Shown piece after piece: positions 2,705 to 6,090 of a stretch of 6,090 bases of DNA; the stretch's first letter is position 1; each line of letters starts with the position of its first letter. Below the pieces are notes generated by a model that had not been told where the DNA came from, did not search any database, and worked only from the letters and a program-made list of their open reading frames with translations. The DNA comes from a virus, in IMG/VR virus record IMGVR_UViG_3300029415_000028; one strand, 5' to 3'. Both the position numbers and the translations under genes were made by a program.

Positions 2705-2781
2705 CATCCTTCAGGACTAGAAGCCCATCGCGGCGTTTGAGCGATATACACCCGCTGCCCGCGTAGGGCCTGATCGAAAAA

Positions 2782-2827
2782 CGGAGCGGAGCGACTTCCT
2801 TAAAGAAGCGTTCCGCTTCGGTATTTT
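2782..2827 (+). terminator. Candidate intrinsic terminator for the genome-length transcript.
   Basis: A 16-pair GC-rich hairpin (CGGAGCGGAGCG-A-CTTC / GAAGCGTTCCGCTTCG, loop CTTAAA) is followed directly by G-TATTTT (2821..2827). It lies 78 nt downstream of the VP2 stop and upstream of the only promoter-like element. Confidence 0.4.
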
Positions 2828-2870
2828 AGCACAGCGTGCGCAAAGGCAAGACAGTTCCTGCCTTGCCGTG

Positions 2871-2894
2871 TCTATACATCTCTGTATACATCCA
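2871..2894 (+). repeat. Tandem iteron-like repeat with a 12-nt period: TCTATACATCTC / TGTATACATCCA. The exact 8-mer TATACATC occurs at 2873..2880 and 2885..2892.
   Basis: Read directly from the sequence; 9 of 12 positions are identical between the two units. The repeat sits immediately 5' of the origin-like CCACTTG/TTAATTAA motif. Confidence 0.6.
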
Positions 2895-2932
2895 CTTGTT
2901 AATTAAGCGAAGCCCCTAGTTGTGTGCGAAGC
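2892..2932 (+). promoter_or_regulatory. Candidate (+)-strand replication origin / Rep nick region. It comprises CCACTTG|TTAATTAA followed by two GCGAAGC mini-hairpin motifs.
   Basis: CCACTTG (2892..2898) plus the AT-only 8-mer TTAATTAA (2899..2906) resembles the phiX174 gene-A cleavage region CAACTTG|ATATTAATAAC, with 6 of 7 matches in the left arm followed by an AT-rich run. GCGAAGC occurs at 2907..2913 and 2926..2932. The function is inferred by analogy only. Confidence 0.35.
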
Positions 2933-3006
2933 AAATCCGAGTTATCCTCTCGGATTCTCCCGCCCCTCGTCCATAAACGCACAACTCACACTCTACGGTA
3001 GAATCT

Positions 3007-3017
3007 AAAAAAAAAAA
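3007..3017 (+). repeat. A11 homopolymer. It forms the loop of an imperfect hairpin (AGAATCT 3000..3006 / AGATTTCT 3017..3024) and sits where an UP-element would be, upstream of the -33 box.
   Basis: Counted directly: four A at 3007..3010 and seven A at 3011..3017. Confidence 0.9.
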
Positions 3018-3024
3018 GATTTCT

Positions 3025-3055
3025 TTTGGAATTATAAAAATAGTTTGTATATTTG
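3025..3055 (+). promoter_or_regulatory. Bacteroidetes-type promoter: -33 TTTG (3025..3028), 19-nt spacer, -7 TATATTTG (3048..3055, matching TAnnTTTG).
   Basis: Both consensus elements described for Bacteroides primary-sigma promoters match exactly, at the reported spacing. The context is AT-rich and about 50 nt upstream of the first ATG (3107). I found no comparable motif pair elsewhere in the window. Confidence 0.55.
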
Positions 3056-3106: not shown

Positions 3107-3301
3107 ATGCAGAAATTTATTATCTCAGTTAAAGACAAAAACACTGGTCGTGATGTTATTTCGCCTTATATTGTCAATTCTCTCGATGGCCTTGGAAATT
3201 ATTCTGAGCGAATGTCTCCGTTGGGCTTTATTGTTATTGTGGATTCGATTAAAGAAGAAAATAATTTTGTTGAAATTAAAACTCAAGGTTATGAAAACTA
3301 A
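3107..3301 (+). CDS. Hypothetical 64-aa protein, the first gene after the promoter.
   Basis: It starts at the first ATG after a 400-nt ATG-free stretch. Its composition is ordinary, not the hydrophobic kind produced by frame artefacts. Its stop (TAA 3299..3301) overlaps the next ATG (3291). I recognise no motif. Confidence 0.6.
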   Translation: MQKFIISVKDKNTGRDVISPYIVNSLDGLGNYSERMSPLGFIVIVDSIKEENNFVEIKTQGYEN

Positions 3302-3374
3302 TAATATTTGGAAAATTGTGATTGGAGCTGTATCCGCTGCTCTTGGTTATATCCTTAATGCTATTGGATTATGA
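3291..3374 (+). CDS. 27-aa micro-ORF encoding one predicted transmembrane helix (MKTNNIWKIVIGAVSAALGYILNAIGL). It is a candidate holin-like or membrane partner of the downstream peptidase.
   Basis: ATG 3291 overlaps the upstream gene by 11 nt. The stop TGA (3372..3374) overlaps the peptidase ATG (3371) in an ATGA arrangement. The N-terminus carries K2 and K8, followed by 19 uncharged, mostly hydrophobic residues. It does not overlap a larger gene, so codon-bias artefact is a less likely explanation, but the ORF is very short. Confidence 0.4.
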   Translation: MKTNNIWKIVIGAVSAALGYILNAIGL

Positions 3375-3679
3375 ATGAGACTTTGATGGATTTTCTTGAG
3401 CTGTTGTTATGCTTTAATTTGCATATTACAGTGACAAGTGCCAAACGTTCTATTGCTGAAAATAAGGCTGTCGGTGGTGTACCTTCCTCTCAGCATTTGT
3501 TTGGAGAAGCCATTGATATTAAACCTTATGGTTCTACTACTTATAGTCGCTTGCTTGAGTTTATCCACAATTATTCGGATCATACTCATGTATTTGACCA
3601 ATTGATATTATATCCTACATTTATTCATATTTCATTTGGTCCTCGTAATCGTCGCCAAGTGATTGATAAACGTAAATAG
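3371..3679 (+). CDS. Minimal zinc D,D- or L,D-peptidase of the LAS / M15 type (Peptidase_M15_3-like), 102 aa. It is a probable peptidoglycan hydrolase (endolysin).
   Basis: Motifs occur in the family order. TSAKRS...N..VGG corresponds to SGYR...N..VGG. S-Q-H42-LFGEAI-D49-I is the H-x6-D zinc motif (3494..3517). F-I-H86-I-S corresponds to the terminal F-V-H-V-D histidine (3626..3628). The roughly 40-aa N-terminal segment usual in this family is missing, and there is no signal peptide. Confidence 0.8.
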   Translation: MNETLMDFLELLLCFNLHITVTSAKRSIAENKAVGGVPSSQHLFGEAIDIKPYGSTTYSRLLEFIHNYSDHTHVFDQLILYPTFIHISFGPRNRRQVIDKRK

Positions 3680-3681
3680 TT

Positions 3682-5361
3682 ATGAATTTTTCTCCTGATT
3701 TGTTTAAGGCTGTTGACCATTGTCAGCATCGTTCGTTTATCACGAATAGGTACACTGGTGCACGTATTGCCGTTGATTGCGGTCAATGCGATTATTGTAT
3801 CCATAAGCGTGCTAAAAAGGCGTCCATGCGCGTGAAAACCGCTGGAAGTGCTTTCAGGTATTCTTATTTTGTGACGCTTACGTATGATAATGAGCATATT
3901 CCTCTATTTAATTGTAAAGTTCTTCACAGTGATTATGAGGACGCCTTAGGCATTTCAGGAAATATACATTTTGGCCATGAACACCATCAATACGTTCCTG
4001 TTTCCGAGTATCAATGTAGTGATAACTCCTCGCTCCGTCATATATTTTTCGAACAAGTTCAGGGTACAGTGCCGTTTGACCGTGAAATTAAGGAATATGT
4101 TCCTGTTACGGATAATTGGTTTCTTAGTATGGATGCTATTCGCAGTTTTATCGGTAAAACGCAAGCCGTTGACAAAACGAATTATCCCGCTTCTGAACAA
4201 TACGGTTGCGATAACCTTATTCCCTTCTTAAATTACGTTGATGTTCAGAATTATATTAAACGCTTACGTAAACATTTATCCCAACAATTAGGTTCTTATG
4301 AAACGTTACATTTCTACGCTGTGGGTGAGTACGGACCCGTGCATTTCCGCCCGCATTATCATCTCTTATTATTCACAAACTCGCAAAAAGTCTCTGAGGT
4401 TCTACGATACTGCCACGATAAGAGTTGGAAATTCGGTCGTTCAGATTTCCAGATTGCCCGAGGTGGAGCTTCTTCATACGTTGCAAGTTACGTTAACAGC
4501 CTTAGTGCTGCTCCCTTATTATATCGCTCATGCCGCGCGTTTAGACCCAAATCGCGAGCATCTGTCGGATTCTTTGAGAAAGGTTGCGATTTCGTTGAGG
4601 ACGAAGACCCTTATGCGCAGATTGAGCAAAAAATCGATTCTGTCGTTAACGGAAGAATCTATAACTTCAATGGCATCAGTGTTCGGTCAACTCCACCCAT
4701 GTCGTATATCCGTACCTTATTGCCCCGATTCTCGTCTGCTCGCAATGACGATAGTGTTGCGATTGCTCGAATTCTTCGTGCTGTACACTCAACGCCAAAA
4801 AGAATTGCAAAATTCGGATTTATCGACTACAAACAGGATTCGGTTCTGAGTCTTGTTCGTACTTATTATCAATATCTTAAAGTTCAAAATATTCTTACAG
4901 ACGATGATAAAATTGTATTACATACTTCTCGGTGCCTTACTAGGTTCTGTAACAGTTCTAGTGATGTCGATATTGAATCTTATATTAATAAGTTATATCG
5001 GCTGTTCTTATATGTCTATAAATTCTTCCGTAATTGGCATCTCCCTCTCTTCGGTTCTGATATTAGCGCTTACTCCGGTCGTATTAGTTTTATCATTAAA
5101 ACAGGTATAGAATATGAAGCGAAAAAAAATTATGAAAGTCTACGAGATACATATAACATCCGTTCCCAATTCCCCGAAATCTCGGATTGTATGTTTGCGT
5201 TGCCTCAGAACGGGCAAGAGATTGATATCTTGTCGAATGTTTCACGTGAGACAATTCAGTTCCTTGAGCAACTCCGGTACCGTAGTTCTACATTCTGTCG
5301 CGATATGATTAAGCATAAGAAGCTTAATGATGCTAATGATATATTCAACCGTATGGTTTAA
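3682..5361 (+). CDS. VP4: VP4 rolling-circle replication initiator (HUH endonuclease, phiX gene-A family), 559 aa.
   Basis: Motif 1 is FVTLTY (3868..3885). Motif 2 is RPHYHLLLF, with H-Y-H at 4354..4362. Motif 3 is the double tyrosine Y266-VAS-Y270-VNS (4477..4491), compared with phiX174 A protein YVAKYVNK. The N-terminus has a Cys/His cluster (C14, H16, C33, C36, C39). The ATG is 2 nt after the peptidase stop. Confidence 0.95.
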   Translation: MNFSPDLFKAVDHCQHRSFITNRYTGARIAVDCGQCDYCIHKRAKKASMRVKTAGSAFRYSYFVTLTYDNEHIPLFNCKVLHSDYEDALGISGNIHFGHEHHQYVPVSEYQCSDNSSLRHIFFEQVQGTVPFDREIKEYVPVTDNWFLSMDAIRSFIGKTQAVDKTNYPASEQYGCDNLIPFLNYVDVQNYIKRLRKHLSQQLGSYETLHFYAVGEYGPVHFRPHYHLLLFTNSQKVSEVLRYCHDKSWKFGRSDFQIARGGASSYVASYVNSLSAAPLLYRSCRAFRPKSRASVGFFEKGCDFVEDEDPYAQIEQKIDSVVNGRIYNFNGISVRSTPPMSYIRTLLPRFSSARNDDSVAIARILRAVHSTPKRIAKFGFIDYKQDSVLSLVRTYYQYLKVQNILTDDDKIVLHTSRCLTRFCNSSSDVDIESYINKLYRLFLYVYKFFRNWHLPLFGSDISAYSGRISFIIKTGIEYEAKKNYESLRDTYNIRSQFPEISDCMFALPQNGQEIDILSNVSRETIQFLEQLRYRSSTFCRDMIKHKKLNDANDIFNRMV

Positions 5362-5378
5362 CTTTAATTTTATTAATT

Positions 5379-6090
5379 ATGAGTGATTTTAATCCGCTAG
5401 ACCGAGCGAAAGTTGCTGTGCATCGCTCCTCCTTTGATTTGTCTAGTAAAAAATTGTTTACAGCGAAAATTGGAGAAATTTTACCTTGCTATTGGCAGAT
5501 TGCCATCCCTGGTACTAAGTATCGTATTTCATCTGATTGGTTTACCCGTACCGTTCCGGTTAATACGGCTGCTTATACTCGTATCAAGGAGTATTACGAC
5601 TTCTATGCTGTGCCGTTACGACTGATTTCCCGTGCGCTTCCACAGGCGTTTACTCAGATGACGGATTATATGACTTCTGCCGCTTCTAATTCTGCTAATA
5701 CACAACAGTTGTCTAGTGTTCCTTATGCTCCTGTTGGTAACATCTCTGCCGAGATTCAGGCTCGTGTGACTGCTAAGACTGTCGATGATGCTGGTTTTGG
5801 TTTTGCTTATGGCTCTTGTAAGCTATTAGATATGCTTGGTTATGGTTCATTCATTGGTACCGGTAATACTAAGAAGAGTGATATTACTATGCAGTATCTT
5901 GGCCTTGATACTGCTTCACTGTCTGATAGTCAAAATCCTCTTATTTATGGTACTAGTATCAATTTGAATCTTCTTCCTATTTTCACTTATCAGAAGATTT
6001 ATTTTGATTTTTATTCAAACTCTCAATGGGAGAAGCATTTGGCTTATTCTTACAATGTTGATTATTGGGACGGTAAGAGCTCTGTTGAAA
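5379..6090 (+). CDS. VP1: Major capsid protein VP1, N-terminal part. It is open at the window end, and the unique portion ends at 5991 before continuing at base 1.
   Basis: I translated it by hand and found no stop from 5379 to 6090. The sequence is MSDFNPLDRAKVAVHRSSFDLSSKKLFTAKIGEILPCYWQIAIPGTKYRISSDWFTRTVPVNTAAYTRIKEYYDFYAVPLRLIS. This follows the canonical Microviridae VP1/F N-terminal pattern (RSxFDLS..K.T...G.L.P......PG......R..P........D.F.VP.RL). The ORF track omits it only because it has no stop in the window. Confidence 0.93.
   Translation, partial: MSDFNPLDRAKVAVHRSSFDLSSKKLFTAKIGEILPCYWQIAIPGTKYRISSDWFTRTVPVNTAAYTRIKEYYDFYAVPLRLISRALPQAFTQMTDYMTSAASNSANTQQLSSVPYAPVGNISAEIQARVTAKTVDDAGFGFAYGSCKLLDMLGYGSFIGTGNTKKSDITMQYLGLDTASLSDSQNPLIYGTSINLNLLPIFTYQKIYFDFYSNSQWEKHLAYSYNVDYWDGKSSVE
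5992..6090. repeat. Terminal redundancy, copy 2, identical to 1..99. It is an assembly or linearisation overlap of a circular genome.
   Basis: Exact 99/99 match to the start of the window. Confidence 0.97.

Follow-up and report, generated by a model that had tools for sequence, protein, structure and literature searches.

To our knowledge, replication origins in the Microviridae have been mapped only for the phiX174-like coliphages, and in phiX174 itself the 30-nucleotide (nt) plus origin lies inside gene A. Mini-hairpin sequences are found at the primase-dependent complementary-strand origins of G4, St-1 and alpha3, and further examples are CCGAAGG in RSF1010 ssiA and GCGGAGC in the hairpin promoters of phage N4; such mini-hairpins bind single-strand-binding protein (SSB) poorly, and their RNA versions are much less stable (PMC13037366). 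Intergenic hairpins have also been proposed as minus-strand starts in unrelated tiny microviruses (PMC9865509). Our literature search returned no prior description of the element reported here and none of origins in the gut, oral or environmental microvirus groups, which are much larger than the phiX174-like one. Here we analyzed a 6,090-nt stretch of viral DNA (IMG/VR record IMGVR_UViG_3300029415_000028, hereafter the window) and describe a folded element of about 95 nt on its + strand (2897-2991), which we named module B. It lies in the sole large non-coding stretch of the genome, from 2705 to about 3100. This stretch also contains the 62-nt segment 2871-2932, which straddles the border between module B and the folded module upstream of it, and which an earlier note had put forward as a candidate origin of rolling-circle replication.

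From 5' to 3', module B consists of an AT-rich tract, mini-hairpin 1, CCCTAG, a long-range helix (P1), mini-hairpin 2, a third hairpin (H3), a pyrimidine-rich unpaired segment and a CACAC tail. We compared it within clade 1 (107 unique sequences) and with the more distant clades 2 and 3. The AT-rich tract at the 5' edge (2897-2906) reads TGTTAATTAA in 41 of the 107 clade 1 sequences, with many variants and with small internal duplications and insertions; in clades 2 and 3 it is AT-rich and of different sequence. Mini-hairpin 1 (2907-2913) is GCGAAGC in 96 of the 107 sequences, GCGGAGC in 10 and ACGAAGT in one, and appears as ACGAAGT or GTGAAAC in clade 2, where both pairs are kept. Together with its flanks (2905-2921, AAGCGAAGCCCCTAGTT) it makes up the longest stretch of the genome that is conserved at 95% or more. 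The adjoining CCCTAG (2914-2919) is invariant in clade 1, and CTA follows mini-hairpin 1 in most lineages (CTACAT in clade 2, CTATTT in L154 and L343).

The P1 helix joins a 5' arm (AGTTGTGT, 2918-2925) to a 3' arm (GCACAACT, beginning at 2979 and paired over 2979-2986). Here 99.6-99.8% of cells are paired, compensatory changes occur at 2922:2982, 2923:2981 and 2924:2980, and T2925.G2979 is an invariant wobble. Mini-hairpin 2 (GCGAAGC, 2926-2932) occurs in 14 variants, and its outer pair is G-C in 68 sequences, C-G in 36 and A-T in 8. The rule d(GCGNAGC)/d(GCGNNAGC) holds for mini-hairpin 1 in 107 of 107 unique sequences and for mini-hairpin 2 in 96 of 107. H3 (2934-2956) has an 8-bp stem, AATCCGAG/CTCGGATT, in which 2934-2941 pairs with 2949-2956, with compensatory changes in seven of the eight pairs. 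Its loop, TTATCCT in the window, reads TTAYCYY in clades 1 and 2, which is not the nonanucleotide of the circular Rep-encoding single-stranded (CRESS) DNA viruses. We considered the TTATCC of this loop as a DnaA box and dropped it, as it is unpaired and matches at only seven of nine positions. The unpaired, pyrimidine-rich multiloop (2957-2978) carries CTYGTC at 2966-2971 (CTCGTC here) and ATAAAC at 2973-2978. Its columns C-T-N-G-T-C-N-A-T-A-A-A are invariant or nearly so in clade 1; clade 2 has CTTGTCTTATATAC at the corresponding place, and clade 3 has CTCGTCCGAAATC. The P1 3' arm and tail (2979-2991) read AACTCACAC in 109 of 110 unique related elements, and clades 2 and 3 carry ACAGAC or GACAC as the tail.

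Over the whole of module B, 96.7% of cells are paired and 12 of 20 pairs show compensatory changes; slid controls reach at most 42%. For the whole element, including the module upstream (module A, 2705-2896), 94.2% of cells are paired with 19-21 compensatory pairs, and the controls reach at most 45%. Where the second heptamer is not GCGAAGC, it changes in a compensatory way; the twin heptamers are genuine DNA mini-hairpins, as had been claimed from the single sequence. RNAalifold placed mini-hairpin 1 in a long-range pairing with 2784-2795, and a pairing with 2815-2831 was also considered; we dropped both because the pairs never covary, and the only informative change (ACGAAGT, in L018) favours the local mini-hairpin.

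The strand that folds can be read from the pairs themselves. G.T wobble pairs, the invariant T2925.G2979 among them, exist on the + strand only, which identifies the + strand as the folding strand. In 167 related genomes, the density of GNA-loop heptamers in the 290-nt element is 18 times that of the remaining + strand, whereas the - strand of the element has almost none (0.08 per element). The window itself has three GCGNAGC copies on the + strand within 147 nt (2786-2932), where chance would give 1.9 over the full window, both strands counted. Treated as RNA, too, the + strand gives a better fold than shuffled sequences (z = -3.8). A folded, strongly conserved and + strand-specific element is what the replication origin region of a single-stranded DNA (ssDNA) phage should look like.

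To assess how deep this conservation runs, we compared the region with other microviruses. The block 2705-3000 is 74-92% identical in 34 GenBank microviruses, some of which show little other megablast similarity, and in an alignment of 59 genomes the conservation of the element (0.87-0.92 per 60-nt bin) is on a par with that of the best coding regions. Pattern searches added more than 110 further elements from IMG/VR and 119 listed metagenome contigs, mostly of human gut. We then ran a covariance model of module B, named R1, on more distant genomes, whose Rep is 25-30% and whose major capsid protein (VP1) is 31-37% identical to those of the window. R1 matched L153 (Rep 28% identical) with an E value of 3e-10, and was weaker in L155, L152 and L154 (Rep 27-29%), where it nevertheless gave the best match in each genome. 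In clade 2 (Rep about 28%) it matched 64 of 67 genomes (E 3e-9 to 3e-5), and in clade 3 (L351-L355; Rep 25-30%, VP1 31-33%) it gave E values of 4e-11 to 2e-8. The matches are always on the + strand and upstream of the Rep-side genes. Clade 3 has two exact GCGAAGC copies at the same 12-nt spacing, together with CCTCTCGTCC and GACAC. Common to all clades are the AT-rich tract 5' of mini-hairpin 1, both mini-hairpins, P1, H3, an unpaired pyrimidine tract that includes CTYGTC and has an A/T-rich block after it, and an ACAC/ACAG tail. R1 thus places module B in at least three diverged clades. The module is universal in the gut (Bacteroidales) microviruses of this group and better conserved than any of their proteins. 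In L155 (bajarodmic virus 576), three direct repeats of AAGTATAAATACCAC stand immediately 3' of module B (4185-4250); this iteron-like array is absent from the clade of the window.

Rfam gave no match to either strand of the window at E values up to 1, blastn of module B against 72,556 plasmids gave none, and an exact search for proviruses with the invariant 23-mer of the element gave none in 185,579 representative genomes. Apart from a CRISPR array described below, the 119 listed metagenome contigs with module B are of unit length, shorter or concatemers. Virome and metagenome contigs that exceed one unit (L023, L042, L058, L065, L125, L276 and L278) are chimeric concatemers of diverged strains, not proviruses.

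Module B, downstream of the pilot-protein gene, occupies a defined place between two transcription signals. On its 5' side, a terminator-like long hairpin (2783-2827, GGAGCGGAGCGA..CGTTCCGCTTC, followed by GGTATTTT) lies in module A, with a terminator scan match at 2805-2819. On its 3' side, an 11-nt A-run (3007-3017) separates it from a Bacteroidetes-type promoter with a -33 TTTG at 3025-3028, a 19-nt gap and a -7 box TATATTTG at 3048-3055. This arrangement fits what we take to be the Bacteroides promoter consensus. In 13 diverged relatives, neither the two TTTG blocks nor the first T of the -7 block varies. The promoter (3025-3055) drives the small open reading frame (ORF), the M15 peptidase gene, the Rep gene and the capsid gene. 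The non-coding region of clade 3 has no parts other than a terminator hairpin, a T-run, module B and a promoter. These observations show module B to be a folded element of DNA type, specific to the + strand, within an untranscribed gap that is bounded by terminator-like hairpins and a promoter. That it acts as DNA rather than RNA is argued by the d(GCGNAGC)/d(GCGNNAGC) rule, by the weakness of RNA versions of the mini-hairpins, by the replacement of an ordinary hairpin with a heptamer in one subclade, by its position between terminator and promoter and by the lack of an Rfam match.

A close parallel in design is the G4-type complementary-strand origin. As in G4, St-1 and alpha3 (Bullavirinae), module B is on the viral strand in a non-coding gap, and combines several stable hairpins, expected to resist SSB, with conserved unpaired sequences. 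Like G4, it has a mini-hairpin of the GCGAAAGC/GCGTTAGC type with a pyrimidine-rich start motif just 3' of it (PMC13037366). In G4, GCGAAAGC falls within the primer template (3970-3997) and tips a hairpin, 3' of which the primer is annotated to start at CTACTG, within CCCTACTG; the corresponding arrangement here is GCGAAGC-CCCTAGTTG. Unlike in the G4 type, the two 7-nt mini-hairpins stand alone instead of capping a long stem, and together with the third hairpin they are enclosed by a long-range helix. The host also differs, being a member of the Bacteroidales, and a priming role here is putative. The heptamer is exactly that of Hirao, d(GCGAAGC)/d(GCGAAAGC), and its variation obeys the published rule, with N free, the C:G closing pair and G..A kept, and the outer pair covarying (PMC13037366). 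As isolated DNA oligonucleotides, such heptamers have exceptional thermal and nuclease stability (PMC13037366). The Hirao mini-hairpins have mostly been objects of physical chemistry with few isolated natural examples, whereas here the heptamer is a repeated, selected building block in hundreds of phage genomes.

We therefore consider, at about an even chance, that module B is the complementary (minus) strand origin, a G4-like priming signal on the incoming viral strand. The precedent of G4, St-1, alpha3 and RSF1010 ssiA connects mini-hairpins with complementary-strand priming sites and not with Rep nick origins. In favour, too, are the place of the phiX174 GCGAAGC, in the F-G intergenic region, and the peak of conservation at mini-hairpin 1 and its 3' flank. 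Conservation across Rep proteins that are 25-30% and VP1 proteins that are 31-37% identical fits recognition by slowly evolving host machinery. Further, the non-coding regions of clade 3 and of genomes without module A hold little else, which leaves module B as the sole complex ssDNA structure for the obligatory start of the minus strand. After ejection, host SSB would coat the viral circle, while the mini-hairpins, H3 and P1 would stay folded and expose fixed unpaired sequences. Host primase or RNA polymerase may then recognize the shape of module B and start an RNA primer at an unpaired site, either the CTA 3' of mini-hairpin 1, a candidate primase start, or CTYGTC in the multiloop. Extension by host DNA polymerase would yield the double-stranded replicative form. 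The priming function, the acting enzyme and the start site are all inferred.

Immediately 5' of module B lies module A (2705-2896, + strand), a replaceable folded module that includes the terminator-like hairpin. It is conserved at 74-92% in the 34 GenBank microviruses, and its hairpins are at 2727-2745, 2757-2769, 2783-2819 (or a local 2805-2819), 2829-2839 and 2845-2867. Compensatory changes are seen in the helices 2727-2731/2741-2745, 2757-2760/2766-2769, 2829-2832/2836-2839 and 2845-2854/2858-2867, and GATATACACCCGC, CGGTATTTTAGC and GCGCAAAGGC form invariant unpaired blocks. The region 2783-2819 can take two mutually exclusive folds, both of which covary, at 2789:2813 (long) and 2806:2818 (local, 6 bp). 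It contains a third GNA heptamer, GCGGAGC (2786-2792), which the long fold pairs; this recalls the interconversion between long hairpin and mini-hairpin proposed for G4 hairpin I. In L012-type genomes, a single subclade, a GCGAAGC heptamer takes the place of the local 15-nt hairpin. Module A is absent or replaced in L125, L130, L137, L142 and L148 despite Rep proteins 82-87% identical to that of the window, and is absent in clade 3; genomes whose Rep is only 60% identical carry both modules. The five genomes, found by a second pattern search, retain only module B, from GTTAATTAA-GCGAAGC to AACTCACAC, with unrelated sequence upstream that is typically a classic terminator hairpin and T-run.

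Module A also carries the TATACAYC repeats that the earlier note had read as iterons for Rep. Copy 1 (TATACACC, 2745-2752) stands directly 3' of hairpin 2727-2745, is invariant in clade 1 and is found in clade 2 (Rep 28% identical) at the same distance from mini-hairpin 1, about -160; the motif recurs there at the same two distances. Copies 2 and 3 (TATACATC, 2873-2892) form the 3' end of the module, with the 12-nt spacing that had been described. Copy 2 (CTATAC) does not vary in any genome that has module A, about 15% of elements lack copy 3, and the exact double TATACATC is confined to this window among the 110 unique elements. The three copies (2745, 2873 and 2885) exceed the 0.45 expected, and only one of 200 shuffles reached three. 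However, TATACAYC is missing from the five genomes without module A, whose Rep is 82-87% identical, which means that the repeats are not iterons needed by this Rep. A TATAC/GTATA hairpin at 2873-2888 was dropped, since half of its variants are wobble-compatible and half are disruptive.

Variation within the element is concentrated between CTATAC and the first heptamer, and CCACTTG (2892-2898), present in 44 of 110 elements, is a variable linker across the boundary between the modules. About 15% of elements lack both the second TATAC and ACTTG, and other sequences replace CCACTTG in the genomes without module A. In about 15 elements an extra 31-36-nt hairpin (CCTAGATCTATTAGTAATGGATCTAGG) sits exactly between CCACTT and GTTAATTAA. 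One element has 140 extra nt at the boundary, which are the native upstream sequence of L142; L014 has the order module A, L142-type sequence, module B. A 23-nt unit (TTACACTTTGTCAAGTCCAGGAC) occurs singly or in three tandem copies, the triplication being that of one element, and one element has a 23-nt insert inside the AT tract. We observed independent boundary insertions at 2896-2902, 5' of GTTAATTAA, in L002, L013, L014, L026, L069 and L135, and several boundary inserts end in AGGAC(T)T. The boundary at 2896-2898 is thus a repeated site of insertion and replacement.

The earlier note had based its proposal on a resemblance to the phiX174 origin. The strings that it listed are where it placed them (TATACATC at 2873-2880 and 2885-2892, CCACTTG at 2892-2898, TTAATTAA at 2899-2906 and GCGAAGC at 2907-2913 and 2926-2932), but they differ in weight: the twin heptamers and the TATAC repeat are non-random, and the phiX-like motif is not. 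ACTTGNTA occurs once where 0.9 is expected, and the core CAACTTGATA with at most two mismatches has seven sites where 7.5 are expected. No site in the window lies within three mismatches of the first 18 nt of the phiX origin, and 26% of random same-length segments of this genome align locally to that origin at least as well as 2871-2932 does. In relatives, CCACTTG is split by insertions of 23-140 nt. Among the 110 unique related elements, the heptamer is conserved (at least one GCGAAGC in 108, two in 60) and CCACTTG is not. Another phiX-like candidate, a pyrimidine tract with CTYG in the multiloop, was rejected because its similarity is no more than chance.

The further suggestion that GCGAAGC belongs to the phiX174 origin region did not stand either. 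The sole + strand copy in phiX174 (2358-2364) belongs to the F-G intergenic region and is 1.9 kb away from the nick, which falls at 4305/4306. The F-G intergenic region of phiX174 holds the primosome site (PMC9865509). We noted that it has two CGAAG motifs within 2311-2364, CCGAAGCGG at 2312 and GCGAAGC at 2358, and that a GAA-loop hairpin, CCCCGAAGGGG, lies at 4329-4341 of phiX174 (L342), 3 nt after the 30-nt plus origin. Compared with that origin (CAACTTG|ATATTAATAACACTATAGACCAC), the present locus shares a Microviridae Rep with two catalytic tyrosines, an ACTTG string adjoining an AT-rich run, and a GAA-loop hairpin nearby. It differs in that the candidate is intergenic and not inside gene A, the sequence match is at chance level, the motif is interrupted in relatives, and the exact phiX GCGAAGC is away from the nick. 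Of the proposed origin as a whole, the region has held up, as the only large non-coding one with a folded, conserved + strand DNA element, while the specific arguments from nick motif and iterons have not. Likewise, the nick proposed after G2898 falls within 1-2 nt of the insertion and replacement boundary, but the motif itself is at chance level and variable in relatives.

Several observations weigh against a complementary-strand origin. R1 gave no significant match to the origins of G4, alpha3 or phiX174 (best E 0.59), so that the likeness to them is one of design and logic, not of homology. In phiX-like phages and rolling-circle plasmids, the Rep origin is common to relatives and the minus origin is swapped; if the same pattern held here, module B, being universal, would be the plus origin, and module A with its replacements (modules A2 and A3) would be minus origins. 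The CCCCGAAGGGG hairpin of phiX174 follows a plus origin, and GAA hairpins are thus not exclusive to minus origins. In addition, a Rep nick at the boundary between the modules would directly explain why it is a hot spot of insertion and replacement. It is possible, though we hold it distinctly less probable than an even chance, that module B is or contains the viral-strand (rolling-circle) origin, with Rep nicking an unpaired site and the upstream modules serving as exchangeable complementary-strand origins. Candidate nick sites would be the AT tract at about 2897-2902 (near G2898/T2899), the H3 loop TTATCCT and the multiloop CTYGTC. The layout would fit the single-strand origin (sso) and double-strand origin (dso) of plasmids and the minus-then-plus order of the f1/M13 intergenic region, where a strand-specific folded non-coding module also lies directly 5' of a second conserved module, and it would mirror phiX versus G4. 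As in sso/dso plasmids, the upstream module is exchangeable among replicons with the same Rep: it takes at least three unrelated forms among genomes with 82-87% identical Rep, while module B is universal and always linked to Rep-side genes. All upstream forms join module B at one point, ..T|GTTAATTAA, to which four kinds of insertion and the tandem triplication also map. Nick sites of rolling-circle replicons are recombination hot spots. H3, with its covarying stem and conserved loop, can be likened to the stem-loop origins of CRESS viruses and of pT181/pMV158. Module A, a 185-nt multi-hairpin with invariant unpaired blocks that is kept into clade 2, exceeds the needs of a terminator, and the GAA-loop hairpin right after the phiX174 plus origin also agrees with a rolling-circle function. 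The Rep belongs to Pfam REP_ORF2-G2P, a family that also holds filamentous-phage gpII. However, similarity to the phiX origin is at chance for every candidate site, and sequence conservation is lacking 5' of the boundary, while the AT tract varies from clade to clade, which is hard to reconcile with a sequence-specific nick. A host factor would better account for the many features kept across Rep proteins of 25-30% identity, a mini-hairpin of 2 bp is unable to extrude from a duplex, so that its conservation argues for an ssDNA role, and the phiX-like plus origin lies inside gene A, so that an intergenic plus origin is not required. As for differences from the rolling-circle plasmids, the locus showed no sequence match in the 72,556 plasmids, and RSB and CS-6 motifs were not identified. 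If Rep does nick here, the general idea of the earlier note would be right, though not for the reasons it gave. We regard as unlikely, though worth stating, a combination of both functions, in which module B would be one ssDNA shape serving both replication starts and held by DNA-only GNA mini-hairpins. On the incoming strand, priming enzymes would read a three-dimensional object, as N4 RNA polymerase reads its GGA/GAA-loop hairpin promoter; on the displaced strand, the Rep cleavage site would be shown in the multiloop or at the 5' edge.

Two other explanations are minor. In the first, the element would play no part in DNA replication and would act as RNA, either as a 3' untranslated region that terminates or stabilizes late transcripts or as a non-coding RNA. 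Since the mRNA has the polarity of the viral strand, covariation does not tell folding as DNA from folding as RNA; hairpin 2783-2819 with GGTATTTT is terminator-like, and the RNA fold of the + strand beats shuffled sequences by the margin given above. Yet in every lineage module B lies downstream of the terminator-like T-run hairpins and upstream of the promoter, and a heptamer replaces a normal hairpin in one subclade. Its most conserved feature is the GNA heptamer, which is stable as DNA and weak as RNA (PMC13037366). With no Rfam family found, a function as RNA seems very unlikely to us. Still less probable is that the AT tract at the boundary is a dif-like XerC/XerD site and that the insertions and module swaps are products of Xer recombination. 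The sequence (A/C)(T/A)TGTTAATT fits what we take to be the XerD-arm consensus, TTATGTHAANT, at 8-10 of 11 positions depending on the member, and the boundary is a break-and-join hot spot. Host XerC/XerD integration has been proposed for Bacteroidales microvirus (BMV) proviruses, whose attachment site is upstream of Rep (PMC3091885). Against this, we saw by eye no acceptable left arm and no 6-8-nt spacer, where a 28-bp site with two 11-bp arms would be expected, and the tract differs in sequence in clade 2. The 185,579 representative genomes lack the invariant 23-mer, and no provirus was found among the listed module B contigs or the chimeric contigs longer than a unit.

Bases 1-99 of the window are repeated exactly at 5992-6090, and from this 99-nt terminal overlap the genome is a complete, circularly permuted microvirus circle of 5,991 nt. 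All genes are on the + strand: VP1 (5379-5991 joined to 1-1115, across the circle junction), a 154-aa protein (1116-1580), the pilot protein VP2 (1580-2704), a small conserved ORF (3107-3301), an M15 peptidase (3371-3679) and a Rep of 559 aa (3682-5361), in which the reported YVASYVNS motif with its two catalytic tyrosines is present. A scan of the window for tRNA and tmRNA found none. The closest GenBank relatives are uncultured microviruses from dog, lemur and human samples. These genomes are mosaic: L148 is 87% identical in Rep, 83% in VP1 and only 48% in VP2, and L142 is 86% in Rep, 87% in VP2 and 67% in VP1. The mosaicism in L148, L135 and L142 indicates that recombination break points flank the pilot gene and the non-coding region.

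We also scanned for suppressed synonymous variation that could betray a plus origin hidden in a gene, and found many peaks in Rep with no single candidate. An overlapping ORF confounds these peaks: it has 183 codons, is nested in the Rep gene in another frame of the + strand (4298-4849), and stays open over at least 169 codons in 59 of 59 aligned relatives. Third codon positions of Rep are unusually conserved (0.80, compared with 0.64-0.72 in other genes). The nested frame may be a gene that overlaps Rep in the way that genes B and K lie within gene A of phiX174.

Evidence on the host comes from a CRISPR array with repeat GTCACACCCTACGTGGGTGTGTGGATTGAAAC, found on a metagenome contig (L294:4380-4870) and on two IMG/VR contigs (L138 and L144). 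Several of its spacers match this microvirus clade, two in module B, one in the 154-aa ORF and one in Rep, and the flanking HydG is 87-89% identical to Bacteroidales/Bacteroides proteins. The spacers and the flanking HydG point to a gut Bacteroidales bacterium as host. An exact search for the repeat in the 185,579 representative genomes gave no match.

Our analysis defines a cis element of about 95 nt that is shared by hundreds of Bacteroidales-associated microvirus genomes and is concrete enough to test, and it opens the origin question for non-phiX microviruses to direct experiment. Confirmation of module B as the complementary-strand origin would reveal how the replication enzymes of Bacteroidales are recruited by an ssDNA phage, and would provide an instance from nature of selection on the DNA-specific GCGNAGC mini-hairpin. 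The covariance model would then be a marker with which to orient genomes, set their start coordinate and classify them, and the element could serve as a minimal origin for ssDNA vectors in Bacteroides. If instead one shape serves both replication starts, module B would become the first origin to be mapped beyond the phiX group, and a protein-recognized ssDNA element conserved more deeply than any protein of these phages.

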